Assembly (NCBI GenBank): GCA_002327585.1
Contig: DCWL01000006.1
Span: forward strand, 28,302 to 92,301
Direction: 5' to 3'
Length of the DNA: 64,000 nt
Origin: Candidatus Phycocordibacter aenigmaticus
GTDB taxonomy: Bacteria > Patescibacteriota > Minisyncoccia > Phycocordibacterales > UBA2163
Below the pieces are notes generated by a model. The model saw nothing but the letters and a program-made list of their open reading frames with translations. It was not told the DNA's origin and did not search any database. Numbering within the stretch: the first letter of the stretch is position 1; each line of letters opens with the position of its first letter. The translations under genes were made by a program, and so were the position numbers. Below are positions 33,556 through 63,900 of the stretch, one piece after another.

Positions 33556-33966
33556 TCATCCTCTTTTCCTTATTCTTCCATAATCTCTTACTTCAAAAGA
33601 GATTACGTCATTGTCGCGCCTAGATACTCGGACTCTCTCCGTGTATGACTTTGGCGCTTTTCCTTTTCTTTTGATTGTAATAATTACAGAATACTCAACT
33701 CTACGAGTTGTGCTCCCTGGAAAAACAAAAGTATGATAATCCCCCGGGCCTAAATTTGACTTTTTGCTTACACTGGAGTTGATGTCCACATAAGCATCTT
33801 CCATATTGTTGCTCACAGTAACTTCTGTGTATGGATAAATAAAAGACCTTACGGGCCAGGAATAACTTACTGTGCTTGTCTTTCCTGTATTATATACACA
33901 CCCCCCACTCATCCCGAACACAACTACTAAAAGTATTGACAAAGCCAAAAATTTAACTTTCATCAC
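33556..33966 (-). CDS. orphan putative lipoprotein (SD-led cassette)
   Basis: Signal peptide with SGG-C lipobox-like site; TTGACA-16-TATAAT; AAAGGAGG SD. Confidence 0.7.
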   Translation of the reverse strand: MMKVKFLALSILLVVVFGMSGGCVYNTGKTSTVSYSWPVRSFIYPYTEVTVSNNMEDAYVDINSSVSKKSNLGPGDYHTFVFPGSTTRRVEYSVIITIKRKGKAPKSYTERVRVSRRDNDVISFEVRDYGRIRKRG

Positions 33967-34153
33967 TTCCTCCTTTAAAGAAAAATAGATTATAAATATA
34001 AATAAGATTTCAAGTCTGTATTCATTATATCATATCTACCAATTTTGTCAATATATACCGTATTATTGACTTCTTGACCGAATCAGCATATTCTAATTAT
34101 GGAGTGCTCTTTTAAAATTTTCAGAATGTTTTATAAAAAAGGAGGCAAATGTT

Positions 34154-34474
34154 ATGTTCAAAAAAATCCTATTTATAGTAATACTGACAGTATTTATAGC
34201 TGGTTTTACAAGTATGCAGCAGAAAGCATCTGCGGACCCAAAAGATAATTTAGCAAAATCGTCAGTTGGCATAGTCGCTGGTTGGACGGAAACGGCAATT
34301 TACCCTATGCAACAAGCAGCAAAACCTGGATGGGCCGGCAAAGTGTTGTTTCCGGTTAATGTTGGTGTTGGAGCGGCAAAAGCGGCCGTACGTACAGGTA
34401 TAGGTGCTATTGATTTAGTAACATTTTTCAAAGAGAAGAACATTGTGGACAGCTGGCCGGGAGAAGATTTATAG
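34154..34474 (+). CDS. secreted/membrane protein resembling TIGR04073 family
   Basis: Signal peptide, GWTE motif, G..K...R...G..DLVTF; TTGACT-17-TATTCT promoter, boxA-like, AAAGGAGG SD. Confidence 0.7.
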   Translation: MFKKILFIVILTVFIAGFTSMQQKASADPKDNLAKSSVGIVAGWTETAIYPMQQAAKPGWAGKVLFPVNVGVGAAKAAVRTGIGAIDLVTFFKEKNIVDSWPGEDL

Positions 34475-34610
34475 TAAAAATTGTTTTAAAACAATCAGTC
34501 TGAGCACTCATAGGCCTAATCTTTATGGATTGGGCTTTTTTTATATTTTAAAAAAATGATATTATTTAAATTAAGACAAAGAGATCTTTTTAAAATCTAG
34601 AAGGAGGGAG

Positions 34611-35027
34611 GTGGGAATAATGAAACGAGCTTTGTATTACATATTTATTATTTTCATTTTTACAGTATTTTCATACACAACTCAAGCTTCAAATAAAATA
34701 AATATTAATATTCAGAAACAAGAAAAGAGTTCTATTGAAAATAGAATTGAAGGTGTTGTGGATGTGTTGTTCGGTTGGACAGAAATAGTTACAACTCCAG
34801 CAAAGGGGGCAAAAAAATATGGTTTATTTGGTTTTTTCGGTGGAGTTGTAATCTCTCCACTTAAAATGACAATAAAAATAGTAGATGGTTTTGGTAAAAT
34901 CGCCAGTGGCAGTAATAGAAAAGAGAAGAGTATTGAGAAGATTCAAATTGATATTGAGAAGGAGTTGGAAGAGTTTCTCAAAGAAGATGAGGATTTAGTT
35001 GAAAATAAAATACTTTCTTTAGAGTAA
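34611..35027 (+). CDS. second GWTE-motif paralog (TIGR04073-like)
   Basis: Signal peptide, GVVDVLFGWTEIVTTP, Gly-rich segment; AAGGAGGGAGG SD; terminator 35046-35073. Confidence 0.65.
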   Translation: MGIMKRALYYIFIIFIFTVFSYTTQASNKININIQKQEKSSIENRIEGVVDVLFGWTEIVTTPAKGAKKYGLFGFFGGVVISPLKMTIKIVDGFGKIASGSNRKEKSIEKIQIDIEKELEEFLKEDEDLVENKILSLE

Positions 35028-48436: not shown

Positions 48437-48564
48437 GAAATTCCGCTTTCCAACTTTTATGTCAGATTTTGAAAATTTATTGTTAGAAAAATCTAAATAT
48501 ACAAATATCTTAAGCTTCAAAACAGCCCAAGATTTTTAATTGTTGAAAAGCGGAATTTCCGCTT
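48437..48564 (+). promoter_or_regulatory. structured leader or ncRNA upstream of rny
   Basis: 17/18-bp inverted repeat 48437-48454/48542-48559 plus alternative hairpin 48548-48564. Confidence 0.5.
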
Positions 48565-48566
48565 AT

Positions 48567-50096
48567 ATGTCACTAAAAATAGTATTTGCACTTCTTGCAG
48601 TTGCGGGAGTGACTGGAATTGCATTCGGGTATTTCCTGCGATGGGTTGTTTCTCTTGGAAGGCGCGGATCCATGGAACTTGAGATTAAGCAGAAAATGCT
48701 TGAAGCCAAAGAAGACGCCAAGCGCATCACAACAAGCGCTGAGGTGAAAGCAAAGGAGACCGTGCAAGAGATCGGGATAGAACTTAAGGAAAAGGAAAGT
48801 CAAATAAAAAAGAGTGAGGATAGACTTATTAAGAAAGAGGAATTTTTAGACAAGAGACAGCTTGATGTTGACAAAGAAGCCGAGGACATCAAGAAGAAGA
48901 TAGAGGAAGTAAAGATTGTAAAGGAGAAAGTGGACGAGCTTGATGTACAAAAGCAGAAAGAGCTTGAGAAGATTTCAAAATTTACAAACGAAGAGGCAAA
49001 AAAAGAGATATTAAAAACAGCTGAGAAACAATATGAAGAGGATATTTTGGCGAGAATCCAGAAGCTTGAATCTCTTGGTAAAGAAAAGATTGAACAACAA
49101 GCAAGTAAGATGCTCGCATCTGCGATTCAACGTCTCGGTAGCGCCGTCCCCTCTGACGTGATGTCAACAAATATAAATCTGCCGTCAGATGAAATAAAAG
49201 GTAAGATTATTGGTAAGGAAGGAAGAAATATAAAAGCATTTGAAAAAGCAACAGGTGTTGATGTTATTATTGATGATACACCAGGAGCCATTACACTCTC
49301 TTCTTTTGATCCTGTCAGACGACAAATTGCGCGCGTTGCGCTTGAGATGTTGATAATAGACGGAAGAATACAGCCGGCAAAGATTGAGGAGGTTGTGGAG
49401 AAGGCGAAAGAGGAAGTTAATAGGGTTATAAAAGAGAAAGGCGAGCAGGCTGTTTATGAATGTGGTGTATTTAACCTAGATCCCCGAGTAGTTTCTATAT
49501 TAGGGAGGCTCTTTTTCAGAACAAGCTATGGACAGAATGTTCTTCAACATTCGATTGAGATGTCGCATATTGCAGGAATGCTTGCACAAGAACTTAAAGT
49601 TGATGTTGCCGTTGCAAAAGCCGGCGCGCTCTTACATGACATTGGGAAAGCCGTTGACCACGAGGTGCAGGGCACACATGTTGAGATAGGAAGAAGAATT
49701 TTACAAAAGCTTGGCGTAAGTGAGGATATTATAAAAGCGATGCAGTCGCATCATGAAGAATATCCTTATGAAACAGTTGAATCAATTATTGTACAGGTTG
49801 CCGATAGTATTTCAGGGAGCAGGCCGGGCGCGAGAAGGGATTCTGTAGAGAATTATCTCAAGCGTCTTGAAGAGCTTGAAGCAATAGCAAATGCACATAA
49901 AGGAGTTGAAAAATCATACGCAATTGCTGCAGGGAGAGAAATACGAGTATTTGTAACACCTGAGAAGATAACAGATTTAGAGGCGAAAAATATGGCAAGA
50001 GATATTGCACTTCAGATAGAAAGAGAGCTTAAGTATCCAGGAGAGATCAAAGTGAATGTGATTAGAGAAATGAGATCAACGGAATACGCACGATAA
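48567..50096 (+). CDS. rny: ribonuclease Y
   Basis: N-terminal TM, coiled coil, KH (KGKIIGKEGRNI), HD (LLHDIGK), SRPGARR. Confidence 0.96.
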   Translation: MSLKIVFALLAVAGVTGIAFGYFLRWVVSLGRRGSMELEIKQKMLEAKEDAKRITTSAEVKAKETVQEIGIELKEKESQIKKSEDRLIKKEEFLDKRQLDVDKEAEDIKKKIEEVKIVKEKVDELDVQKQKELEKISKFTNEEAKKEILKTAEKQYEEDILARIQKLESLGKEKIEQQASKMLASAIQRLGSAVPSDVMSTNINLPSDEIKGKIIGKEGRNIKAFEKATGVDVIIDDTPGAITLSSFDPVRRQIARVALEMLIIDGRIQPAKIEEVVEKAKEEVNRVIKEKGEQAVYECGVFNLDPRVVSILGRLFFRTSYGQNVLQHSIEMSHIAGMLAQELKVDVAVAKAGALLHDIGKAVDHEVQGTHVEIGRRILQKLGVSEDIIKAMQSHHEEYPYETVESIIVQVADSISGSRPGARRDSVENYLKRLEELEAIANAHKGVEKSYAIAAGREIRVFVTPEKITDLEAKNMARDIALQIERELKYPGEIKVNVIREMRSTEYAR

Positions 50097-50258
50097 ATCA
50101 GTTATACACAGGTTTTTTTCAGGGTATTGCGTAAATAGTGGCTTAATATATAATGTTGAGAGCTTCCAAAACTGCGGTTTAGGGCTTGTTAGCCGAATCG
50201 CTGTAGGAACGGACGTATATACGGTCGACTTTTAACAAGTATTTAACAAAAAATCAAA

Positions 50259-50531
50259 ATGAACAAAGCATCTATAGCTGATAAAGTTCATGAAATGCTT
50301 GGAGGAACAAAAGCTCAAGCAGAGAGAGCGGTTGATTTGGTTGTCGATTCTATTATTGAAGGGCTTAAAAACGGTCAGGAAGTGTCAATTGCAGGACTTG
50401 GAATTTTTTCAACAAAAATGCGCGCAGCGCGCCAGGGCCGAAACCCTCGCACAGGAGAAAGCATCCAAATTCAGGCAATGAGGATTCCTAAGTTCCGGGC
50501 AGCAAAAGCTCTTAAGGACGCAGTTAAATAA
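50259..50531 (+). CDS. hup: DNA-binding protein HU
   Basis: MNKA, GLGIF, RAARQGRNPRTGE, PKFRAAKALKDAV. Confidence 0.96.
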   Translation: MNKASIADKVHEMLGGTKAQAERAVDLVVDSIIEGLKNGQEVSIAGLGIFSTKMRAARQGRNPRTGESIQIQAMRIPKFRAAKALKDAVK

Positions 50532-50552
50532 ATAACAGGTTTTTCTCTAGAG

Positions 50553-50586
50553 AAAACAACCCCAACGTGACGTTGGGGTTGTTTTT
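50553..50586. terminator. terminator after hup
   Basis: AAAACAACCCCAACG-TGA-CGTTGGGGTTGTTTT. Confidence 0.8.
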
Positions 50587-50606
50587 TGTTACTATTCAAA
50601 AACAAT

Positions 50607-50677
50607 GCGGGATTAGTTAAATGGTATAATATCAGTTTTCCAAACTGAGGTTGGGAGTTCGATTCTCCCATCCCGCA
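50607..50677 (+). tRNA. tRNA-Gly(TCC)
   Basis: GCGGGAT...ATCCCGC; TCAGT-TTTCCAA-ACTGA. Confidence 0.93.
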
Positions 50678-50683
50678 CACAAG

Positions 50684-50718
50684 AACAAACCCCTCCGCCT
50701 GTGGCGGAGGGGTTTGTT
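50684..50718. terminator. bidirectional terminator
   Basis: AACAAACCCCTCCGCC-TGT-GGCGGAGGGGTTTGTT perfect 16-bp stem. Confidence 0.8.
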
Positions 50719-50723
50719 GCTAA

Positions 50724-50843
50724 TTACTCAGTTGCTTCTGTAGCATCCCCCTCTGTCCCCTCTGTTTCTGGAGCAGCTGTAGGGTTTACTGAGGGAGTTT
50801 CTCCCTCAGTTCCTTCAGGAGCATTTGGATTCATTTCATCCAT
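50724..50843 (-). CDS. 39-aa acidic low-complexity peptide (not in ORF track)
   Basis: MDEMNPNAPEGTEGETPSVNPTAAPETEGTEGDATEATE; own TTGACA-16-TATACT promoter and terminator. Confidence 0.6.
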   Translation of the reverse strand: MDEMNPNAPEGTEGETPSVNPTAAPETEGTEGDATEATE

Positions 50844-51029
50844 AATGTTTTTATTTAAAGCTTCAAGTCATTTTTAAGGTGAATTCAAGCTTACTTGTAA
50901 TTAAACAAAAACTTGGAATTAACCAAGTTTCTATTAAATGTAGTATACATGAATAGAAACATTTGTCAATACTAAGCAATAATTATCTATTATTGTCAAT
51001 TTAGGGCTATATAATGTTATAATACGAGA

Positions 51030-52187
51030 ATGAAAGCCTTTATTTTATTAATACTTATAGGTATTGTTGTTTTCTTTGGGACATCAAAGTCTTCTGTGCG
51101 TGATGTTGCAGAATTTAAGCAAGAGCCGGAGTTTGTATTTGATGAAGAAAATGAACTTGAATTGTTAGAGAGTTCTTCAAAATCTGAAATAGAAATAAAA
51201 GAAGAAGAAATTATTGTAGTTGAAGAAGTGCAAGAGATAATTGTAGAAATTCCAGAAGTTATTTCTCTACCTGACAGCACTCAGGAGAATGTTGTAAAGC
51301 TTGTTGTTCCAAAGAAGGAGGAGAAACCAAAGATACTATTTAAGGATATCAATATAAGTACAAGAGAAGCACTTGTAAATATTTTCTGTACGACAAAATT
51401 TGGAGGATTATTCAAGCCGATTACTGGAAGCGGGATTGTAATAGATGAAAAAGGTATAATTCTTACAAATGCACATATTGCACAGTACTTTTTACTGAAA
51501 GATTATCTGACAGAAGATTTTGTTGACTGTGTTGTACGTAAAGGAAGTCCAGCAAAGCCACAATATAAAGCGGTTCCAATTTTCATATCGCCGTCGTGGA
51601 TAGAAAATAATGCCAAAAACATCAGAGAACAATCTCCCACAGGAACTGGAGAAGATGATTACGCGCTGATTCTTATAAATAAACATGTAAATCCGGAAAA
51701 AAATATTCCAGAATCTTTTTCTTTTATTTCTCCTGAATACGACAGTGAAAAAATAAAAATTAACGATACAGTTTTACTTGCAGCTTATCCCGCTGGGTTT
51801 TTAGGAGGCATATCAATACAAAAAGATTTATATTTAAGCTCGACTGTCACAAAAATTATGGAGTTGTTCACTTTTAAAGAAAGTACGTTGGACGTTTTTT
51901 CAATTGGAGGAAGCATTGTGGCTCAGCAGGGATCATCTGGAGGTGCTGTGGTTAATGGAGAGAATAAATTACTTGGCATTATTGTAACGAGTTCTACCGC
52001 TGAAACAACGCAGGATCGCGATCTGCGCGCTATCACAATTTCGCACATAAACAGGAGTTTTATTAAAGATGTGGGGTTTGACCTACAGACGATATTTAGT
52101 GGAGATGTTGCCGCAGAAGCCGAAGCATTCAACAAAAACATAGCACCAATACTTACGCAGTTTTTAGAGAATGAGTTAGATAAATAG
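51030..52187 (+). CDS. membrane-anchored trypsin-like serine protease
   Basis: GSGIVI, LTNAHI, DYALI, QGSSGG catalytic triad. Confidence 0.88.
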   Translation: MKAFILLILIGIVVFFGTSKSSVRDVAEFKQEPEFVFDEENELELLESSSKSEIEIKEEEIIVVEEVQEIIVEIPEVISLPDSTQENVVKLVVPKKEEKPKILFKDINISTREALVNIFCTTKFGGLFKPITGSGIVIDEKGIILTNAHIAQYFLLKDYLTEDFVDCVVRKGSPAKPQYKAVPIFISPSWIENNAKNIREQSPTGTGEDDYALILINKHVNPEKNIPESFSFISPEYDSEKIKINDTVLLAAYPAGFLGGISIQKDLYLSSTVTKIMELFTFKESTLDVFSIGGSIVAQQGSSGGAVVNGENKLLGIIVTSSTAETTQDRDLRAITISHINRSFIKDVGFDLQTIFSGDVAAEAEAFNKNIAPILTQFLENELDK

Positions 52188-52189
52188 TT

Positions 52190-53254
52190 TTATTTTGCTA
52201 TAAAAATTTTCTGTGTAGGATAAGCAAACTCAATCCCCTCTTTTTCAAAAGCTTCCATAAGGAAGAGATTGAATTTCTCTCTCGTGTCCATATATGTATT
52301 GTAGTCCCCCGTCGTTATATGATAAACAATTTCAAAATTTAAAGAGAAATCACCAAACTCTTTAAAATGAATTCTGTCCAACTCTACATTTTGTAGAGAT
52401 TTAAAAATATTTTTTATAATCTCTTTTACTTTTTTAATTTTCTCTACAGGGGTTTCATAAAGAATTCCAAAAGATGAAACAATTCTTCTCTTTTTCATTT
52501 TCTTGAAATTCTGGATCTGCGCGCCGGTAAGTTCATTATTAGAAATTATAATTTCTTCTCCTTGAAGTGCTCTTATGCGGGTTGTCTTAATGCCTATTTT
52601 CTCAACAGTCCCCATATACTCGCCGGCGACTATAAAATCCCCAACTGAAAAAGGCTTGTCAAAATAAATTGCAAACGAACTGAAAAGATCAGATAAAATA
52701 TTCTGCATCGCAAATGCAACTGCAATACCTCCGATGCCGAGCCCTGCAATAAGTGATGTGACGTCAATACCTAAGTTTGAAAATATTAAAAGAAGACCTA
52801 TTATCCAGAGCAGAAACTTCGCAATCATGTTTATATAACCAATAGCCGCCTTTGCACTTTTGTTTTCTTCTTTAGCAAATTTTTTGCTTAGTATGTAGTT
52901 AATAAGAATCTGAATTCCAGCGATGACTTGATACACAATCCATACGACTAAAATACCGTTTATAATTTTTACCGTAAGTATGCCCAAAGCTAGAAACTTA
53001 ACTGCAAAGTAAAATGCCACAAACCAATAAAATGGAGGCTTTAAGCTTTTTACAATTGAAATTAAAGTGTCGTCAATGTCGGTCTTGGTTTTCTGAGCAA
53101 GTTTCTCTAATCGCCTTAATATGACATATTGGATAATCTTGAAGACAATTAAAAGGACTATAAATAAAGCTATTGCTTTTGCATATTCAAGCACAGAATT
53201 ACCAAAATATTCAGCCCCGAAATTGATATTTTCTATAAAATTAGTCATTGACAT
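52190..53254 (-). CDS. small-conductance mechanosensitive channel (MscS family)
   Basis: AGLGIGGIAVAFA, DKPFSVGD, GTVEKIGIKTT, GIEFAYPT. Confidence 0.94.
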   Translation of the reverse strand: MSMTNFIENINFGAEYFGNSVLEYAKAIALFIVLLIVFKIIQYVILRRLEKLAQKTKTDIDDTLISIVKSLKPPFYWFVAFYFAVKFLALGILTVKIINGILVVWIVYQVIAGIQILINYILSKKFAKEENKSAKAAIGYINMIAKFLLWIIGLLLIFSNLGIDVTSLIAGLGIGGIAVAFAMQNILSDLFSSFAIYFDKPFSVGDFIVAGEYMGTVEKIGIKTTRIRALQGEEIIISNNELTGAQIQNFKKMKKRRIVSSFGILYETPVEKIKKVKEIIKNIFKSLQNVELDRIHFKEFGDFSLNFEIVYHITTGDYNTYMDTREKFNLFLMEAFEKEGIEFAYPTQKIFIAK

Positions 53255-53272
53255 AGTTTACATTATATTGCT

Positions 53273-53536
53273 TTATTTTGCAAGGATCTTTTTCTCATAC
53301 TCTGGGAAATATGTGGATATTTGTTTTAAGTTGAATTTCTTAAGTATTGCTTCTTTTGGTTCTTTATCAAGAAGAAATTCAAATGACTTTCGGACTAGTT
53401 CACTGGGTTTGACCTCGCGGCTAGTAAGTTTCTCCCAATATTCCCTATCAACCGTCACTTCGTAGCACATACCTTCAATCTCTACACTAAATACCCATTT
53501 CTCTTCAGATTCACTTTTTATTTCTACATTTGTCAT
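53273..53536 (-). CDS. conserved hypothetical protein
   Basis: LVRKSFEFLLDKEPKEAIL..F.L..I..YFPEYE pattern; start trimmed to ATG 53536. Confidence 0.7.
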   Translation of the reverse strand: MTNVEIKSESEEKWVFSVEIEGMCYEVTVDREYWEKLTSREVKPSELVRKSFEFLLDKEPKEAILKKFNLKQISTYFPEYEKKILAK

Positions 53537-53682
53537 ACCTCTAATTCTCTCATAGGTGTGGATAAATGGGAAATTTGACAATATATTATAGAATATGTTA
53601 CGATACAGCCTCGTTGTTCTTTATAGCTACATACGGCTAGCCACAGCCACATTTAACTTTTTTACAATGAAAGGGGTTTTGA

Positions 53683-54204
53683 ATGACTTCACGAACAGAT
53701 AAAAAAAAGATTTTAACTGTCGGTTTTTCCGACAATGAAAAGCAAATATTAGACGCTTCCAATGCCGGTAGGTTTGATATTACTCACGAGAGTAATACAA
53801 AAGACGGCCTGGAGAGCATCTCAAACGCGACCGTGTTTGATGCTTTATTTGTAAAGGACGGAGCATGGCCTGCCATAGAAGGCAGAAGTGCTATAGATGG
53901 TAGAGATCTGCTTAAACAAATGTCAGAGATACCTAAACTTCTTACAATAGCTATCGAAGACAGTATGTTTATAGGTATTGCCCATCCGGAATGTGGCAAA
54001 AAACCTGTTGTTCAAAACCTGAAAGATCTAGAAAGTATCAGGAATGTGGAGAGGATTACCGCATTAGATATTAGTACAAACAAAGATTTAAAAGCTTTAT
54101 TTAGTACGGTGGTTGAGAATATTATCAATGAAGAGTCATTAGTAAAAGAAGATTCGGCCGGGAAAACAGAAGATGTAAAAAACGCAGCATTTCTGACTTC
54201 CTAA
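53683..54204 (+). CDS. orphan protein with degenerate receiver-like fold (SD-led cassette)
   Basis: KILTVG...DGLESI...FDALFVKD...P...DGRDLL; promoter, boxA-like, AAAGGGG SD, terminator 54277-54308. Confidence 0.7.
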   Translation: MTSRTDKKKILTVGFSDNEKQILDASNAGRFDITHESNTKDGLESISNATVFDALFVKDGAWPAIEGRSAIDGRDLLKQMSEIPKLLTIAIEDSMFIGIAHPECGKKPVVQNLKDLESIRNVERITALDISTNKDLKALFSTVVENIINEESLVKEDSAGKTEDVKNAAFLTS

Positions 54205-54325
54205 TCCTAATTTAGATGTAGTAGAAGTAAAAACTAATTAATTTAAAGGCTTGTGGCTAAGCTATGTAGTTGGTATACCCCCAAAACCTTTGGTTTCGGG
54301 GGTTTTTATTGTATAGTAAATCAAT

Positions 54326-54396
54326 CGGGGTGTAGCATAGTGGTAGTGTACTCGGTTTGGGACCGAGCGGTCCGGGTTCGATTCCCGGCTCCCCGA
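54326..54396 (+). tRNA. tRNA-Pro(TGG)
   Basis: CGGGGTG...CTCCCCG-A; CTCGG-TTTGGGA-CCGAG. Confidence 0.92.
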
Positions 54397-54412
54397 ATTT
54401 TCTAAAGGACAT

Positions 54413-54835
54413 TTATATAACTATATCTTCTAAAAATCCCACTCTCACCTTTTTATTCTTTATATCAAGATAAATTATAATCACATCAAACCACCACTAT
54501 ATGCCATCACCTGCCTTTTCAAGTAAGTATGTCCGTATAGTTCTTAATAATAGCTTTAATTTCTATTAATGTGCTTTATCTTCCGGTCTACAGCTATCTG
54601 TTTCATGAATAACATTATCTAATTTTCCACATAACATAGTTTTTACTTCAATAAAGTGTAAAAGCTTATCTTTTTAGTAATTATACCAATTTCTCCCTAT
54701 TTTTTTCAATAATTTCATTCAATAATCTTAAACCTTTGTTTCACGAGAAACCTATATGCTATATTTTCATTAATTTCTCTAATTTACTGCTTTTTTTATT
54801 TCAATTCCTATTGATATATGTTATTTATGAAACAT
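54413..54835 (-). pseudogene. yraN: yraN (UPF0102) pseudogene
   Basis: Manual translation gives IAYRFLVKQ..KII, GEIGII, LHFIEVKT, RPED, FDVI with several in-frame stops and frameshifts. Confidence 0.75.
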
Positions 54836-54861
54836 AATATAATAAAGTTTCATGTGAAACT
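54599..54861. promoter_or_regulatory. cluster of parS-like palindromes
   Basis: TGTTTCACGAGAAACC 54737, AGTTTCATGTGAAACT 54846, weaker copies at 54599 and 54819 versus consensus TGTTTCACGTGAAACA. Confidence 0.7.
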
Positions 54862-55092
54862 ATTTTAAGTGTTATGAACAGGATGTATTACTTAACCTTT
54901 GAGTAACAAATATCCTTATTTTAAGTCATATTTTTAGAAAAGGACGTTATAATTAACTATTTATTAAAAATGTCTTTTATACACATATTCACAGTTTTAT
55001 CCACAATTTTACATGAAAATATCCTTATTTTTCGTAATTTTTAAAAAATCTTAAAGACAAAACTACAAAAATTATTAACGTTATTGATAGTG

Positions 55093-55163
55093 TGCGGATA
55101 GAGGGAATTGAACCCTCGTCTCATCCTTGGCAAGGACGTATTCTACCACTAAACTATACCCGC
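55093..55163 (-). tRNA. tRNA-Gly(GCC)
   Basis: CGTCC-TTGCCAA-GGATG anticodon arm. Confidence 0.92.
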
Positions 55164-55166
55164 ATA

Positions 55167-55238
55167 CGCGCCCGCCAGGACTCGAACCCAGAACGGCTGG
55201 TCCGAAGCCAGCTGTGATATCCATTTCACCACGAGCGC
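55167..55238 (-). tRNA. tRNA-Arg(TCG)
   Basis: GCTGG-CTTCGGA-CCAGC anticodon arm. Confidence 0.92.
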
Positions 55239-55302
55239 AATAAAGATATTATACAATTTTATTGGCATAAATACAAAACATGAAGTAGAATAAATATAAA
55301 TA

Positions 55303-56778
55303 ATGAACAAGATTAAATTAAACATTCCAAAAGAGGTTTCACAGGTAACAAAATCGCTAGAAAACGCAGGTTTTGAGTCATATATTGTGGGAGGATGTGT
55401 GAGAGACCTCTTGAGAGGCAAAATTCCAAAAGATTGGGATATTACAACAAATGCGACACCCGAGAGAATAAAAAAACTATTTGACAACACATTTTACAAT
55501 AATGATTACGGAACAGTAGGTGTTGTGAATGAGGGTACAGAGGATGAAACTCTTAAAGTGATTGAAGTAACACCATATCGTCTTGAATCAGAATATTCAG
55601 ACGCCAGAAGACCAGATTCTGTGGAATTCAGCCATTCTTTAGAACATGACCTGCATAGGCGTGACTTTACAATAAATGCGATCGCATACAGTCTTTCTAA
55701 AGAACATATCGTTGATCTTTATAAAGGACAAGGAGATATAGAGAAGGGAATTGTGCGCGCAGTTGGAGATCCAGATATAAGATTTAATGAAGATGCTTTG
55801 AGAATATTACGTGCTATAAGGATTTCAGCGGAGTTAGGTTTTAAAATAGAGGAGAAAACTAAAAAAGCAATTAAAAATGATGCTAGAATGATAGTTAAAA
55901 TTGCCAAAGAGCGAATTAGAGATGAGTTTATAAGGATTATTATGTCAGATAAGCCTATGGAAGGCCTTGAATTAGCCCATGAATTGGGGGTTTTAAGCTT
56001 TATAATACCTGAACTTGAAGAAGGGTTTGACGTGAAACAAAATCAGGCTCATTCCTACACAGTTTGGGAGCATTCTCTTAGATCAGTTCAGCATTCATCT
56101 GAAAAGGGATGGCCTCTTGAGATACGTTTGGCGGCTTTGTTTCATGATATAGGAAAACCAGCAACAAGTAGGTGGTCTGACGAAAAGCAGGATTGGACGT
56201 TTCATGGGCATGATGTTGTCGGCGGCAGGATGACTAAGAAAATACTGACTGATTTGAAGTTTCCCAACAAACAAGTGGATAAAATAACAAAATTGGTCCG
56301 CTGGCACTTGTTTTTCTCTGATACTGAGAAAATAACACTCTCTGCCGTCCGCAGGATGATACGAAACGTGGGGGAAGATAATATATGGGATCTAATGGAT
56401 TTGCGTGTCAGCGACAGAATAGGAACAGGAAGGCCAAAAGCTCATCCATATCGCCTACGCAAATATAAATCTATGGTTGAGGAGGCACTACGAGACCCAA
56501 TATCTGTAATGATGCTTAAAATTAATGGCAGAAGAGTTATGGAAATTACAGAAGAGAAACCGGGACCTAAAATAGGATATATTCTACACGCTCTTTTGGA
56601 GGAAGTTTTGGATAATCCGAAGCTCAATACTGCCGAATATTTAGAGGAAAAGACTAGAAAACTTATTAAATTAAGTGAGAGTGAGCTCAAAAAAATTGGA
56701 GAAAAAGGAAAATTAAAAAAAGGCGAAATAGAAGGAAAAGAAGTTGAAAAAGTAAGAGATAGGCATTATGTGAAATAA
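55303..56778 (+). CDS. cca: CCA tRNA nucleotidyltransferase with HD domain
   Basis: VGGCVRD, DWDITT, RRDFTINA, EDALRILR, ERI, FHDIGK. Confidence 0.92.
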   Translation: MNKIKLNIPKEVSQVTKSLENAGFESYIVGGCVRDLLRGKIPKDWDITTNATPERIKKLFDNTFYNNDYGTVGVVNEGTEDETLKVIEVTPYRLESEYSDARRPDSVEFSHSLEHDLHRRDFTINAIAYSLSKEHIVDLYKGQGDIEKGIVRAVGDPDIRFNEDALRILRAIRISAELGFKIEEKTKKAIKNDARMIVKIAKERIRDEFIRIIMSDKPMEGLELAHELGVLSFIIPELEEGFDVKQNQAHSYTVWEHSLRSVQHSSEKGWPLEIRLAALFHDIGKPATSRWSDEKQDWTFHGHDVVGGRMTKKILTDLKFPNKQVDKITKLVRWHLFFSDTEKITLSAVRRMIRNVGEDNIWDLMDLRVSDRIGTGRPKAHPYRLRKYKSMVEEALRDPISVMMLKINGRRVMEITEEKPGPKIGYILHALLEEVLDNPKLNTAEYLEEKTRKLIKLSESELKKIGEKGKLKKGEIEGKEVEKVRDRHYVK

Positions 56779-57005
56779 AAAAATCCACCATAGAGCTTAA
56801 AGTGGAGTTATGTAAGCATAATAGTGGATTTCTAGGAGAAACCGAGAGAGATGAGAGAAGGCCGTAAAATGAGTTTGATATAAGTTATATGCGTGTATTA
56901 AATATCTCTTTATACAAAAATTTAATAAGATTGCAGATAAAAATACTTAACAGTCATACCACTAAATTCAAACTACCTGATTGTGTAAAGAACCACTAAT
57001 CCACT
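56777..57005 (-). ncRNA. candidate sRNA with boxA-like element and CU-rich anti-SD tract
   Basis: TATAAT at 57012-57007, GGTTCTTTACAC, 5'/3' complementary AGTGGATT/AATCCACT, terminator-like hairpin; no ORF longer than 11 aa seen. Confidence 0.4.
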
Positions 57006-57095
57006 TATTATAATACTTCCTATAAAGGACATTTGTAAAGGACATTTATGTGGATAACTTTTCAACAAGCTTAGAGTAAGTTTTAAAAATATCTT

Positions 57096-57863
57096 TTAAG
57101 ATAATTCAATACCAACTGGCGCATGGTCGGAACCAAATATATCGCTTAAAATAAAAGCCTTTTTAAGATTATTCTGTAAATTTGAACTTATGAAAAAATA
57201 ATCCAACCTCCAGCCGATATTGCGGTCGCGGGCTCTTGTCTTAATATCCCAATAGCTATATGAATCTTTTTTATCAGGATTTAGATGCCGGAATGTGTCA
57301 ATATAGCCGTGGCGGATTACTTCATCAATCCATGCTCTCTCTTCGGGAAGAAAACCTGTGCTTTCTTTATTTTCCCTCGGGCGGGCAAGATCAATTTCCT
57401 CATGAGCTGTGTTTATATCTCCACAGAAAATTATTTTTTTTTCGCCCTTTTTTAATTTTTCAATATAATTAAGAAATGCATCATAAAAATCAAGTTTGTA
57501 TTTTAATCTCTCTGGCCCCATGCCGCCGTTGGGGAAGTAAACATTTAAAAGTATAAAGTTTTTGAAATATAAAGTTAATAAACGTCCTTCTTGGTCAAAT
57601 CTCTTTATCCCCATGCCATACTCAACCTTTTTCGGCTTGGTCTTGGTGTAGACGGCTACTCCGCTGTATCCTTTTTTAATTTCTGCTGAGGCGAAAAATG
57701 AGAAATGGCCTCGTATCTCGCGCAGTTGCTCAGGAAGTTGCTGAGGTTGAGCTTTTGTCTCCTGAATGCAGAAAATATCGGCATTTTGTGTAAAAAAATC
57801 ATTCCAAGAGTCTTTTTTATGAATGGCTCGCAGACCATTTACATTCCAAGATAGTATTTTCAT
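57096..57863 (-). CDS. xth: exodeoxyribonuclease III
   Basis: SWNVNGLRA, IQETK, GYSGVA, CGDINTAH, GWRLDYF, GSDHAP. Confidence 0.96.
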   Translation of the reverse strand: MKILSWNVNGLRAIHKKDSWNDFFTQNADIFCIQETKAQPQQLPEQLREIRGHFSFFASAEIKKGYSGVAVYTKTKPKKVEYGMGIKRFDQEGRLLTLYFKNFILLNVYFPNGGMGPERLKYKLDFYDAFLNYIEKLKKGEKKIIFCGDINTAHEEIDLARPRENKESTGFLPEERAWIDEVIRHGYIDTFRHLNPDKKDSYSYWDIKTRARDRNIGWRLDYFFISSNLQNNLKKAFILSDIFGSDHAPVGIELS

Positions 57864-57881
57864 GTATTTATATTAATATTT

Positions 57882-58808
57882 TTATTTCCTTTTCTTTCCA
57901 TGAAACGTTTTATGTATTTCACGGAGATGTTTATCTGTGACATGCGTGTAGACTTGTGTTGTCGCAATGTTTGCATGCCCTAAAAGCGCCTGCACCGAGC
58001 GTAAGTCAGCACCACTTTCTAGAAGATCGGTTGCAAAGGAATGGCGCACTACATGAGGAGTCACTTTTTTAGAAATACCAGCTTTCACTGCATAGAATTT
58101 TACAATCCGCTCAACAGAACGCGGTGTAAGGCGAAGTGAATCCGCGCGTGAAGCATTTTTGCCGAATTGAATAAACAATGCTTCATCCATATCTTCTCTT
58201 TTGTCTAGATAGTTTCTTACAGCCTTTTTTGCAGAGTTTGAAAGAAAGACAACGCGGATTTTATCTCCCTTACCGCGCACAGAAAGCTCATCTTTTGAAA
58301 GGTCAATGTCATTGTTTAAAGCGCAAAGCTCTGATACGCGCAAGCCTGTGGAGAATAAGAGCTCTAATATCGCTTTGTCGCGGAGACTTTTAACATCTGT
58401 TTCATCTGGTGATGAAAGAAGTCTCCCAAGATCGTCTGAAGATATAAGGTCTAGGCTACGCTCGGAAGTTTTTGCAAGCTCAATGCGCTCAGGGGAGAGA
58501 GAATCTATCTCACGTTTGCGTAGAAATTTAAGAAATGCGCGAAGAGCTATTAAATAATAGTTTTGAGTTTTTTTCTTAAGAGTATCTTTCACCCCTTCTG
58601 TTGTTGCACCACTTTCTTGCCTATTGAGCCATAGGCGGAACTTACGGACGTTCTCATCGGTAATATCTCCCACTTTCTTTATTTTCGTGAAATCAATAAA
58701 ACGAGAAAGATATCGGTCATAGTTTTGTACAGTTTTCAGACTCCTACCTTTCTCAATCTCTAAGTATTCAAGAAACTCTTGTTTTAATTTCTCAATATTT
58801 TGCGACAT
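57882..58808 (-). CDS. XerC/D-family tyrosine recombinase
   Basis: STGLRVSEL, GKGDK.R, TPHVVRHSFAT, LLGHA...TTQVYTH. Confidence 0.93.
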   Translation of the reverse strand: MSQNIEKLKQEFLEYLEIEKGRSLKTVQNYDRYLSRFIDFTKIKKVGDITDENVRKFRLWLNRQESGATTEGVKDTLKKKTQNYYLIALRAFLKFLRKREIDSLSPERIELAKTSERSLDLISSDDLGRLLSSPDETDVKSLRDKAILELLFSTGLRVSELCALNNDIDLSKDELSVRGKGDKIRVVFLSNSAKKAVRNYLDKREDMDEALFIQFGKNASRADSLRLTPRSVERIVKFYAVKAGISKKVTPHVVRHSFATDLLESGADLRSVQALLGHANIATTQVYTHVTDKHLREIHKTFHGKKRK

Positions 58809-58943
58809 TAAATATATTGTAGCAGGAGTTTTTCTTTTTCAAAACTTTATTTTGAATTCGCAGGAATATCTTATTGTGGGATGTGCTACATTATATTTTT
58901 CACGGTTGCAAAATCTGCTGTTTTTTGGTACTATATTCATATA

Positions 58944-59210
58944 ATGCTTACATTAAAAAAGAAGCAGAAGTCAATAAAAGAAACGCGGATTCACGATAAA
59001 GACACTGGTTCTCCTGAGGTGCAGGTTTCAATATTAACAAAAAGAATCACTGAACTTACAAAACACCTTAAGAAAAACATCAAAGACAAACATCCGCGCC
59101 GGGGGCTTTTAAGTATGGTTGCGGCCCGCCGTAGGCATTTGAAATATTTGGAGAAAAAAAACAAGAAGAGGTATAGCACTCTTATAAAAAAACTTGGCTT
59201 GAAAAAATAG
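58944..59210 (+). CDS. rpsO: 30S ribosomal protein S15
   Basis: [12 protein letters not shown]...KD...RRGLL; start trimmed. Confidence 0.96.
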
Positions 59211-59219
59211 TCATGAATT

Positions 59220-59735
59220 ATGATAATAAAACACAAAAATCAGCGCGTTGGAATTTTTATAGATACGCAAAATCTCTACCACAGCGCTAAGAATTTATAT
59301 AAGTCAAAGGTAAACTTCGGACATGTTATAAAAGACGCACTTTCAGGGCGCAACCTTATTCGTGCCGTAGCGTATGTTGTAACGACAGAATCCGGCGAGG
59401 AAGGCGGGTTTTTTGAGGCGCTTGAAAAACTTGGAATAGAAACGAAGACGAAAGATCTTCAGGTATTTTTCGGTGGAGCAAAGAAAGCCGACTGGGATGT
59501 AGGAATTGCAATTGATGCGGTTAAAATGGCACCAAAACTCGACACCATCATTCTTGCGACGGGAGACGGCGATTTTGTGCCTTTAGTTGAATATTTGAAA
59601 ATGAAAGAGGGATGCCAGGTGGAAGTGATTTCATTTGGGCGCTCTTCTTCAAGTAAGCTTCGTGAAGTAACAGATGACTTTATTGACATGTGCGAGAATC
59701 CACGAAGGTATTTGATAGGATATAGGGGACGATAA
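59220..59735 (+). CDS. NYN domain (LabA/DUF88) protein
   Basis: FIDTQN, KADWDVGIAID, GDGDFVPL. Confidence 0.92.
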   Translation: MIIKHKNQRVGIFIDTQNLYHSAKNLYKSKVNFGHVIKDALSGRNLIRAVAYVVTTESGEEGGFFEALEKLGIETKTKDLQVFFGGAKKADWDVGIAIDAVKMAPKLDTIILATGDGDFVPLVEYLKMKEGCQVEVISFGRSSSSKLREVTDDFIDMCENPRRYLIGYRGR

Positions 59736-59737
59736 AA

Positions 59738-61873
59738 ATGCAAAAGAAAGAATATTCAATAGAAATAGGAGGAAAAACACTTACTGTTCAATTTACAGAC
59801 TTGGCAGACCAGACAAATGGCTCTGTTATTGTACGTTTAGGCAACACCTCTGTTCTGGCGACAGTCGTTATGTCAACGCATAAGCGCGAAGGGATTGACT
59901 ATTTTCCGCTCACCGTTGATTATGAAGAAAAATTCTACGCAGTGGGGCAGATTTTGGGAAGCCGTTTTCTGCGAAGAGAGGGAAGGCCGTCAGAGGAGGC
60001 AATTCTCTCCGGTAGAGTTGTTGATAGAACAATTCGCCCTTTATTTGACCAGTATATAAGAAATGAAGTGCAGGTTGTCACAACGGTACTTTCAGTTGAT
60101 AAGGATGATCCTGATATTTTGGCGATAAATGCCGCCTCAATTGCCCTTGCCGTCTCTGACATTCCATGGAACGGGCCGGTAAGTGCTGTAAGAATAGGCA
60201 AGCATAAAGGAGAAAATAAATTTGAAATAAATCCTCACTATCTTTTTAGAGAAAATAAAGATGCAGAGCTTGATATGATAATCTGCGGCAGAGATGGTGA
60301 TATAAACATGATAGAAACCGGCGCAGAGGAGTTAAGCGAGGACATATTGACAGATGCATTCATTATCGCTCTGAAAGAGATTGAGAAACTTCAGGAGTTC
60401 CAAAAGAAGATTGTAAAAGAGATTGGAAAAGAGAAACAAAAGATTGAAAAAATTCAAATGCCAAAAGAAGTCATTGAACTTTTCGAAAGTAGTGGTATCA
60501 AATCTAAATTACCGGAGGAAATATTCTCAAGTGCTGGAAAGGGAAAAGTTCATGCTCTACAGAGTGATTGGAGTGAACTTGTAAAAGAAAAATTATCAGA
60601 AGAACAGTATTTTTTAGCACACAATCTCTACGAAGAGGAAATAGACAAACTTCTCCACAGAGAAGCAATTGAAAACAATAGGCGTGCTGATGGAAGAAAA
60701 ATGGACGAAGTACGGAAACTTTTCGCGCAGGCCGGAGATATCTCAGAGATTATTCACGGCTCCGGAATATTTTACAGAGGAGGAACTCATGTATTCTCGG
60801 CGCTGACTTTAGGCGGACCAGATGATTCTCTTATTATAGACAGCATTGAAGCTCAGCAGGAGAAAAAACATTTTATACACCATTACAATTTTCCCCCGTT
60901 CTCATCTGGTGAAACTGGGAGAATGGGAGGCACGAACAGAAGAATGATAGGGCATGGTGCGCTCGCAGAGAAAGCACTTACTCCTGTAATTCCTCCCAAA
61001 GAAAAATTTCCGTATACGATACGAGTAGTATCAGAAAGCTTGGCTTCAAACGGCTCTACATCAATGGCGTCTGTGTGTGCAAGTACAATTGCTCTTATGG
61101 ACGGCGGTGTTCCTATAAAAGCGCCTGTTGCGGGAATTGCAATGGGACTTGTTATGGACGAAAAAGAAACAGGTAAATACAAAATTTTAACTGACATACA
61201 AGGACCCGAAGATCACCATGGTGATATGGATTTCAAAGTTGCTGGGACAAGGCAAGGGGTTACTGCAGTGCAGATGGACGTGAAAGTTGGAGGCATACCA
61301 ACATCAATACTTAAAGAAGCACTTGGAGAAGCAAAAAAAGCACGACTCCAGATTCTTGACATAATAGAAAAAGAAATACCGACTCCCCGCGCAAAAATAT
61401 CACAGCGTGCTCCAAAGATTGTCACAATGAAAATCAAAAAAGAGCAAATAGGAGATGTTATTGGCTCTGGTGGAAAAATTATAAACGAAATAAAAGATGA
61501 GATGAAAGTCGATGACATCAATATTGAAGATGACGGAACAATATTTATTACAGGCAAAGGTGAAAGTACAGAGCAGGCCTGGAAAGCAATTGAAGAGATT
61601 GTACACGAATATAAAGCAGGTGAACGCTACACTGGCGAAGTCATGAAAATCACTGACTTTGGGGCATTTGTAAAGATAGGAAGAAAAACAGAAGGGCTTG
61701 TTCACATTTCAGAAATTGCGCCGTTTCGGGTTAACAACGTTTCTGATATTCTTAAAGAAGGAGATAAGGTGCCTGTCGCTGTCAAAGGAGTGGATGAAAA
61801 AGACAGAATTTCTTTATCCATCAAAGCAGCTGATCCAAATTTCGCAAAAAGTAAGACAGTAGTTAAAAAGTGA
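59738..61873 (+). CDS. pnp: polyribonucleotide nucleotidyltransferase
   Basis: FPLTVDY, RREGRP, SNGSTSMASVC, GDMDFKVAGT, KH and S1 domains. Confidence 0.97.
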   Translation: MQKKEYSIEIGGKTLTVQFTDLADQTNGSVIVRLGNTSVLATVVMSTHKREGIDYFPLTVDYEEKFYAVGQILGSRFLRREGRPSEEAILSGRVVDRTIRPLFDQYIRNEVQVVTTVLSVDKDDPDILAINAASIALAVSDIPWNGPVSAVRIGKHKGENKFEINPHYLFRENKDAELDMIICGRDGDINMIETGAEELSEDILTDAFIIALKEIEKLQEFQKKIVKEIGKEKQKIEKIQMPKEVIELFESSGIKSKLPEEIFSSAGKGKVHALQSDWSELVKEKLSEEQYFLAHNLYEEEIDKLLHREAIENNRRADGRKMDEVRKLFAQAGDISEIIHGSGIFYRGGTHVFSALTLGGPDDSLIIDSIEAQQEKKHFIHHYNFPPFSSGETGRMGGTNRRMIGHGALAEKALTPVIPPKEKFPYTIRVVSESLASNGSTSMASVCASTIALMDGGVPIKAPVAGIAMGLVMDEKETGKYKILTDIQGPEDHHGDMDFKVAGTRQGVTAVQMDVKVGGIPTSILKEALGEAKKARLQILDIIEKEIPTPRAKISQRAPKIVTMKIKKEQIGDVIGSGGKIINEIKDEMKVDDINIEDDGTIFITGKGESTEQAWKAIEEIVHEYKAGERYTGEVMKITDFGAFVKIGRKTEGLVHISEIAPFRVNNVSDILKEGDKVPVAVKGVDEKDRISLSIKAADPNFAKSKTVVKK

Positions 61874-63459: not shown

Positions 63460-63900
63460 TTATTGTTGGAAATAATTAATTATTTCTAGACATCTTTGCC
63501 CCTCCTGTTTAATTAAATTTACAATTTCCTGAAAAGCATCAGGAACAGATTTTGCTTCTGTTCTGTCATTAGGATAATAAGTAATTTCTACCTCATCATC
63601 ACCACATTCAATTCTATCTTCTTTGTTTTTAAATGAGAAGCTGATTAATCTTGAATCAAGATCATTATGATTACTTGCAACTTTGTATACAATACCTGCG
63701 CTAATTTCATCTTCCTTTAGTTTTTTGCAAAACACAACATCACTGTCCATAGATACTTTTCTAGCAATACTCATAATTGTTTCTTCTGCGGTATTTTTAA
63801 AATATTTTCTACCATTATCTCTAAAAGCCAAAAGTGTTTTTTCAGTTAGTTCATTTAACTCTTTGAAAAAATTCTTAACATTTTCGTCATCCATTCCCAT
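63460..63900 (-). CDS. orphan hypothetical protein (SD-led cassette)
   Basis: 146 aa; TTGACA-16-TATAAT, TAAGGAG SD, ACCTGCAA/TTGCAGGT terminator at ~63402-63432. Confidence 0.7.
   Translation of the reverse strand: MGMDDENVKNFFKELNELTEKTLLAFRDNGRKYFKNTAEETIMSIARKVSMDSDVVFCKKLKEDEISAGIVYKVASNHNDLDSRLISFSFKNKEDRIECGDDEVEITYYPNDRTEAKSVPDAFQEIVNLIKQEGQRCLEIINYFQQ

Follow-up and report, generated by a model that had tools for sequence, protein, structure and literature searches.

A conserved end-to-end RNA helix predicted to enclose a Shine-Dalgarno-led mRNA in a Parcubacteria-type genome

Introduction

Demonstrated end-to-end helices are few among bacterial mRNAs. The available text on the B. 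subtilis hbs mRNA (Braun, Durand and Condon 2017; PMC5737220) describes a leader that pairs over 14 bp (-19 kcal/mol) with a complement shortly upstream of the terminator; hbs is a core gene, and the effect of the pairing was shown by mutation. The mRNA duplexes that B. subtilis RNase III cuts, in the accessible part of another report, are intramolecular, 10-36 bp long and span hundreds of nucleotides (PMC11780869). Ends of one message can also pair over the Shine-Dalgarno sequence (SD): according to excerpts of the respective papers, the 3'UTR of S. aureus icaR pairs with the SD and represses translation (PMC3868564), and in type I toxin mRNAs, e.g. H. pylori aapA, 5'-3' pairing buries the SD (PMC6733600). 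For E. coli rRNA, the partial sources at hand report that the Nus complex tethers the 5' end and boosts RNase III processing. The literature that we searched, which comprised few subscription papers and no supplements, described no end-to-end mRNA helix in CPR bacteria and contained no paper on mRNA transfer from them.

The locus and its parts

The stretch of DNA analysed here (the window, 64,000 nucleotides) belongs to a genome of the CPR/Parcubacteria type (G000; 476 kb, 16 contigs). It contains a transcription unit flanked by an upstream neighbour which, naming it by eye, we take to be an mscS-like gene, and by tRNA-Pro (54325-54397). The parts of the unit are:

53575..53604, + strand: sigma-70-type promoter (TTGACA, 18 nt, extended -10 (TGn)TACGAT)
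53615..53624, + strand: boxA-like motif TGTTCTTTAT with the core GT[AT]C[AT]TT, from the sequence
53624..53648, + strand: 5' arm of the end-to-end helix, from the predicted fold and anchored duplexes
53669..53676, + strand: canonical SD GAAAGGGG, after a U-rich tract and in the loop
53683..54204, + strand: 173-aa ORF with a predicted receiver (REC/CheY-like) fold, from a structure model
54248..54272, + strand: 3' arm, 44 nt past the stop codon and 5 nt ahead of the terminator
54277..54307, + strand: predicted intrinsic terminator hairpin and U-tract

A sequence-only reading of the same DNA had placed the promoter, TGTTCTTTAT, ORF and terminator at these places and the arms at 53625-53648 and 54248-54271, and the sequence and the fold confirm them. 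The promoter matches 10/12 consensus positions, with the TG present, and predicts a transcription start at ~53611-53613. Its layout is identical in all 6 genomes that keep the stalk, and the terminator site has a hairpin with a U-tract in 7/7 orthologues. The surroundings vary: the tRNA-Pro 3' of the unit is flipped in G004 and G007 (L014, L016) relative to the other five genomes, and an ORF of 86-102 aa between mscS and the promoter (window 53273-53581, - strand) is present in G000 and absent from that place in G002 and G008. A Pfam search with this ORF gave no significant match.

The unit resembles hbs in that the leader finds its complement shortly ahead of the terminator, the pairing does not involve the SD and the decay enzymes are of the Firmicute type. 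It differs from hbs, as the available text describes it, in having a helix of 23-25 bp (-31 to -38 kcal/mol) that is predicted from sequence and folding and starts ~12 nt past the predicted transcription start. It also differs in that its ORF is hypervariable and confined to the genus, and its organism lacks an anti-SD. Set against the B. subtilis RNase III duplexes in the accessible part of that report, the focal duplex spans ~650 nt and joins both UTRs. The order of promoter, boxA-like motif, 5' arm, long RNA and 3' arm is that of a pre-rRNA stalk, in the portions of PMC10250234 and bioRxiv 10.64898/2026.03.17.712431 available, and the helix is of similar length (roughly two turns or longer), with NusB and RNase III both present. 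Unlike the stalk in these sources, it is bulged, encloses an mRNA and follows a motif that is not the organism's own boxA and has no boxB, and SuhB was not found in the 5 genomes searched; in this genome 16S and 23S-5S are each transcribed from their own promoter, with uninterrupted stalks of 27 bp. With icaR and aapA it shares the pairing of 5' and 3' regions of a single mRNA, but, by comparison with the excerpts of those papers, its 3' arm leaves the SD free and its ORF is not a small toxin. By analogy, we consider that the unit works like the known 5'/3'-UTR interactions and has borrowed the layout of a pre-rRNA while lying outside the definition of one.

Fold of the focal transcript

Folding of the 698-nt transcript pairs 53624-53648 with 54248-54272, giving 23 long-range pairs at p>0.5, most of them at 0.9-1.0, and a predicted helix that encloses the SD and the whole ORF. 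The fold of the whole RNA has z = -6.4 (20 shuffles). The long-range arms proposed earlier were recovered in this fold; the single internal loop proposed between two helices was not, and the helix is interrupted instead by three small bulges of 2, 1 and 1 nt.

The duplex between the 5' and 3' flanks of the focal gene is the strongest of 480 genes (-31.9 kcal/mol, the next being -26.5; 506 genes were called and 26 left out for short flanks or N), and none of 1200 non-cognate flank pairs was as strong. A Gumbel fit expects ~1.1 such duplexes per 480 genes. Because this amounts to about one case per genome, the statistic from a single genome is only suggestive: it is borderline against chance, and it is conservation in relatives that decides the matter. 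An Rfam search of the unit returned nothing at or near the gathering threshold. By eye, the 5' arm looked similar to 16S helix 44; this idea was dropped, there being no such match among the 60 short-BLAST matches listed for the G000 flanks.

Conservation in related genomes

We compared G000 with nine congeners. Protein searches detected orthologues in 2/9 congeners only; mscS was found in 6/9, and in 6/6 of these an ORF of 169-183 aa lies at the matching place, giving an orthologous locus in 7 genomes including G000. No orthologue was found in G001, G003 and G006, two of which are incomplete genomes.

The end-to-end helix is predicted in 6/7 copies, with energies of -31 to -38 kcal/mol and 20-32 long-range pairs at p>0.5. 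The exception is G005, where a deletion took the promoter, the motif and the 5' arm and left the SD, an intact ORF and the 3' arm, either by recent silencing or as an assembly error; the best partner of this orphan 3' arm is the 5' arm of G009. The deletion (L012, G005:C14) lies between short ATATT repeats.

In the anchored duplexes, the conserved parts of the helix are a GCCAC/GUGGC core, an outer UACAU/AUGUA helix and a central bulge of 1-2 nt. Changes on both sides keep the pairing: U-A becomes C-G beside the GCCAC core (G000/G008 vs G004/G009), GGUCC/GGACC occurs in G007, and C-G becomes U-A in the outer helix. On the sense strand these duplexes contain 139 Watson-Crick pairs, 16 G-U pairs and 1 A-C mismatch, a count in which sense-strand folding itself favours G-U; in G004 and G007 (2/6) the duplex formed by the antisense strand at least equals the sense one in strength. 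Cognate arms pair more strongly than cross-species ones (mean -33.2 vs -27.6 kcal/mol), and the cognate matching ranks 4 of 720 permutations, or 2 of 120 without G002. RNAalifold on a MAFFT alignment did not recover the helix because MAFFT had set the 3' arms out of register.

Among units with a promoter and SD, the orthologue has the top flank duplex in four genomes, by 10-17 kcal/mol (21 units in G000, and in the fetched parts of G004, G007 and G008 20, 12 and 10 units in 391, 204 and 253 kb, respectively). Together, these comparisons over 7 genomes, which are related and not independent, argue that the helix is a real, selected RNA structure. That the pairing itself matters, as in an hbs-type interaction, is indicated by compensatory changes only, in six related genomes. 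The earlier proposal of an RNA-level helix that closes a discrete transcription unit is supported. The arm sequence (UACAU...GCCAC / GUGGC...AUGUA), however, is conserved beyond what pairing alone requires, which hints at a protein that reads the arms.

The boxA-like motif and Nus factors

The rRNA boxA of the genus is GAACTTTGACAA. G000 has it in both its 16S and its 23S leader, and G002, G004, G005 and G007 have it in the 16S leader; in 16S leaders a boxB-like hairpin precedes it. The focal motif matches this boxA at 5/12 positions and has no boxB hairpin ahead of it. It matches the consensus GYTCTTTAANA given in the available text of PMC5725501 at 8/10 fixed positions, this consensus being gamma-proteobacterial and different from the organism's own boxA. 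At the same place G004 and G007 read GTACATT.

In G000, G[CT]TCTTT occurs in 8/46 SD-led leaders vs 5/140 control leaders; as a genus-wide motif this strict form was rejected, being found in 0/19 leaders in G004. The broader GT[AT]C[AT]TT occurs in 15/56 leaders over four genomes (0.84 upon shuffling, 0 on the reverse strand), a pattern chosen after the orthologues had been seen, and the 15 include 4 focal and 4 look-alike leaders. Counted by eye, ~8 independent other leaders carry it. These counts argue that a real 5'-proximal motif exists in SD-led leaders. Of the earlier description as boxA-like, the kept position and the enrichment bear out one part, and identity with the own rRNA boxA is not borne out.

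NusB is encoded in 10/10 genomes of the genus, in long ORFs upstream of rnc, and RNase III, also in 10/10, follows directly after nusB. The G000 copy is a NusB-Nudix fusion (G000:C2:10285-11918), the Nudix Pfam match having been shown on the G002 copy. Searches of 5 genomes did not find the SuhB family or RtcB, and a search of G000 only did not find Rho. Because Rho, SuhB and RtcB were not found, antitermination against Rho is an unlikely purpose of the motif. A plausible one, by analogy with E. coli rRNA, would be tethering of the 5' end.

Translation context

The 16S 3' tail of G000 (GGAUUAUUUCCAAC; G000:C13:598-650) has no anti-SD, and CCUCC is present in the tail in 0/26 genomes with a recovered 16S end, of 41 searched. 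Loss of the anti-SD has been published for part of the Parcubacteria, in the accessible text of PMC9297842. The focal SD forms a duplex of -7.8 kcal/mol with the canonical anti-SD and -2.8 with the organism's own tail, and over 7/7 orthologues the values are -7.8 to -11.1 vs -2.8 to -5.5. Among core genes, 32/361 have an SD, and 67/140 genes look leaderless. Canonical SDs precede 46 candidate ORFs, mostly short orphans and including a few false starts. An alternative SD fitting the own 16S tail was considered and rejected, as it is not enriched ahead of 346 core genes.

In the focal leader the 5' arm ends 20 nt ahead of the SD, at -35 from the start codon, with the SD at -14 to -7 and unpaired to the 3' arm. 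Closing the helix produces no consistent change in predicted SD accessibility. Since the SD lies outside the helix, the message would stay translatable. In 5/7 orthologues (L011-L016) the SD is followed, immediately ahead of the start codon, by GUUG(G). This is the complement of the final bases in the 16S tail of the organism and shows no enrichment in core genes.

The enclosed protein and exchange of alleles

Protein identity to G000 over the six orthologues is 92, 21, 16, 21, 17 and 22%. The model of the ORF product has a pLDDT of 70 and a predicted (beta-alpha)5 receiver fold (an earlier fold from 3 sequences, with a pLDDT of 39, was set aside). Structure searches (Foldseek, VIA and also Atlas) returned REC-domain matches with Z 12-14, and the product is like REC domains (PF00072) and, by structure match, the KaiA N-terminal pseudo-receiver. 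Unlike canonical REC domains it has Lys58 aligned with the phospho-accepting Asp position at the end of beta-3, which over the 7 orthologues is K in 2, N in 3 and D in 2, and no Pfam REC match was obtained for any of the 7 members. The ORF thus encodes a predicted, fast-evolving pseudo-receiver. Homologues outside the genus were found neither in 401 genomes of the order nor among 1.8 billion representatives or 5.8 billion proteins (near lengths only). A metagenome scan via mscS gave new copies that were all G002-like (3/80 loci). Three viral pattern matches were rejected, as they had no 5' partner.

The ORF has dN/dS of 0.24-0.32 in three closer pairs and 0.5-0.65 in two saturated pairs, and mscS has 0.05-0.08; the values point to purifying selection on the ORF. 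Conservation of the RNA frame far exceeds that of the protein inside it: G000 and G008 are 74-75% identical in the UTR regions, whereas their ORFs are at 50%, the level of shuffled sequences. Between G000 and G002 a tract at ~53601-54400 is 90-100% identical (with dips to 72 and 82), the sequence outside it being mostly at 60-85%, and dS is 0.14 in the ORF vs 1.6 in mscS. This near-identical tract extends past the 3' arm and through tRNA-Pro. We infer that homologous recombination in the conserved flanks has carried alleles from one species to another.

Metatranscriptome evidence

Of 24 listed runs, 6 were RNA runs that contained a portion of the stretch; three of these RNA runs and one DNA run were aligned to 48500-60500. 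RNA contigs cover 53623-54282 (X15), 53623-54237 (X16, the same study) and 53630-54274 (X17, a second study with a G002-like strain). They have depths of 16-59 and show no loose ends and no joints at the unit; one ends at its 3' side inside the terminator. In the DNA run 30/30 bins had depth, and among the pieces listed one crosses the 5' end of the unit and none the 3' end. We did not take missing RNA cover over the neighbouring genes as evidence. Because contigs leave RNA ends unfixed and the runs were selected for holding the stretch, the contigs hint only weakly at a separate RNA that has the stalk as its limits and both arms whole.

Function of the helix

Among relatives the pairing persists while the enclosed protein becomes nearly unrecognisable, so the helix likely controls survival of the message. 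In our preferred reading, to which we give a probability of about 0.5, the unit is a stand-alone mRNA with an hbs-type end-to-end helix of 23-25 bp that stabilises it against decay. The helix would close after transcription of the 3' arm. At ~53624 it would then block RNase J, which a search found to be present, on its way in from the 5' end; at the 3' end it would reinforce the terminator against PNPase, and in the leader it would hide RNase Y cut sites, as in B. subtilis hbs. By eye, we take the window ORFs 48540 and 59738 to be RNase Y and PNPase, respectively. With its SD free, the mRNA could still be translated. More speculatively, NusB(-Nudix)/NusE on the boxA-like motif, within the first ~10 nt, might hold the 5' end at the polymerase until the arms meet. 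Alleles of the ORF appear to be exchanged between species within the conserved UTR frame.

The main alternative, a less likely one, is that the helix acts as an RNase III site, as in pre-rRNA, with both arms cut in the complete transcript; this would either release a mature mRNA held closed by its inner GCCAC/GUGGC helix or remove the 5' end and terminator and so destroy the message on a timer. Such a role is compatible with stabilisation, as the two are not mutually exclusive. The enzyme occurs in all ten genomes of the genus, B. subtilis offers a precedent (mRNA duplexes of 10-36 bp with sites up to 505 nt apart, in the accessible part of that report), the focal 23-bp helix is RNase III-sized next to the 27-bp stalks of the own 16S and 23S, the conserved arm sequence could contain enzyme determinants, and the motif ahead of the arm recalls the Nus complex that boosts RNase III in E. 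coli. However, RNA contigs cross both arms uncut, one of them into the terminator, as precursors could also do; all six stalks are bulged (1-2 nt) mid-helix and share no evident sequence with the uninterrupted rRNA stalks, there is no boxB, and searches of 5 genomes yielded no SuhB. Circularisation, also proposed in the sequence-only reading, would have the arms join the ends for ligation. Archaeal pre-rRNA stems, which are cut and ligated, have a similar geometry, but three RNA runs at depths of 16-59 contained no back-joint (contigs drop rare forms), RtcB was not found in 5 genomes, and the stalks are not 3-4-3 bulge-helix-bulge motifs, all of which makes a circular mRNA highly improbable.

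Readings in which the arms serve something other than the cell's own RNA turnover appear unlikely to varying degrees. The stalk might be gripped, like a handle, by a protein that packs the mRNA for delivery to a host cell, whose ribosomes would read the SD and whose two-component signalling the pseudo-receiver would hit; if true, host ribosomes would make a swappable pseudo-receiver that disturbs host signalling. We regard this as unlikely. It would account for an SD in cells without an anti-SD (CCUCC in 0/26) that in 7/7 orthologues pairs better with the canonical anti-SD than with the own tail, in a genome whose core genes are SD-poor and many of them leaderless; for a motif that fits the gamma-proteobacterial boxA, as available, at 8/10 positions; and for a hypervariable protein apparently swapped between species. 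But most SD-led units have no stalk, so the stalk cannot be a general export signal, the SD could have another reader inside the cell, and the genome's own kinases and receivers are possible targets of the protein. An improbable extension is that an mRNA made like a pre-rRNA, with a boxA-guided stalk, would be a durable particle and an injected effector between bacteria. It is very unlikely that the arms act on DNA, whether by forming the ends of a mobile or invertible cassette or by serving as sites for a recombinase or repressor. Their sequence is conserved, alleles do move (the G000/G002 tract; G008 shares the UTRs and not the ORF), and there is an ORF at 57882 that we take, by eye, to be tyrosine-recombinase-like. 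Yet orientation and site are identical in 7/7 genomes, the longest perfect inverted run is 6-12 nt and bulged, G000 has no second copy, a 20-mer of the G004/G005/G009 arm is limited to those three records of the genome collection, one DNA run has no joint at the unit, and the shared tract passes the arm through tRNA-Pro, as homologous recombination would. These features do not favour the transposon terminal inverted repeats considered previously, and target duplications, which would mark a mobile element, are not consistently present at the unit.

The focal mRNA can be assembled from seawater metatranscriptomes owing to its abundance, and this abundance together with the conserved RNA frame makes it a good test case for the reader of SD-led genes in Parcubacteria without an anti-SD. 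It is also a first candidate mRNA target for the NusB-Nudix fusion and RNase III of Parcubacteria.

Other loci

The sequence-only reading had treated end complementarity as a general pattern of orphans. Without the focal gene, cognate ends of 21 units with a promoter, SD and terminator in G000 pair about as well as shuffled ones (permutation p=0.28), and parts of three other genomes likewise have no class-wide end pairing; the general pattern is therefore not supported. The example at 63460 is at chance level (-6.1 kcal/mol, equalled by 7 and 9 of 20 non-cognate partners). A further example held up:

34099..34511, + strand: second, weaker stalk (arms 34099-34109 and 34502-34511, 8-11 bp)

It encloses an SD-led 106-aa ORF (34154-34474), and its 5' arm overlaps GCTCTTT. 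The duplex (-15.3 kcal/mol) is the best of 21 partners in both directions and is kept in G002; G009 has an 11-bp form of it that includes a G-U pair.

The remaining proposed stalked mRNA, at 56777-57005 (- strand), has no ORF, its predicted fold is without end pairing, and the complement is not kept in homologues. It is instead an ORF-less RNA with its own promoter, a long hairpin and a terminator (fold z -4.9), covered by an RNA contig (56779-57002), with syntenic homologues in G002, G004, G005, G007, G008 and G009 and no Rfam match. A boxA-like motif is kept near its 5' end, and it carries a C/U-rich anti-SD-like tract, CUCUCUCGGUUUCUCCU. We consider this RNA a candidate partner for SD-led mRNAs.

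Genome-wide, ~40 short orphans (e.g. window 33556-35027 and 63460-63900) have a consensus promoter, an SD and a terminator, and their leaders are AU-rich and 40-90 nt long. One SD-led, lipoprotein-like orphan (G000:C13:801-1308) ends head-to-head with the 16S trailer around a single hairpin, at a point that directly follows the 16S stalk's 3' arm.
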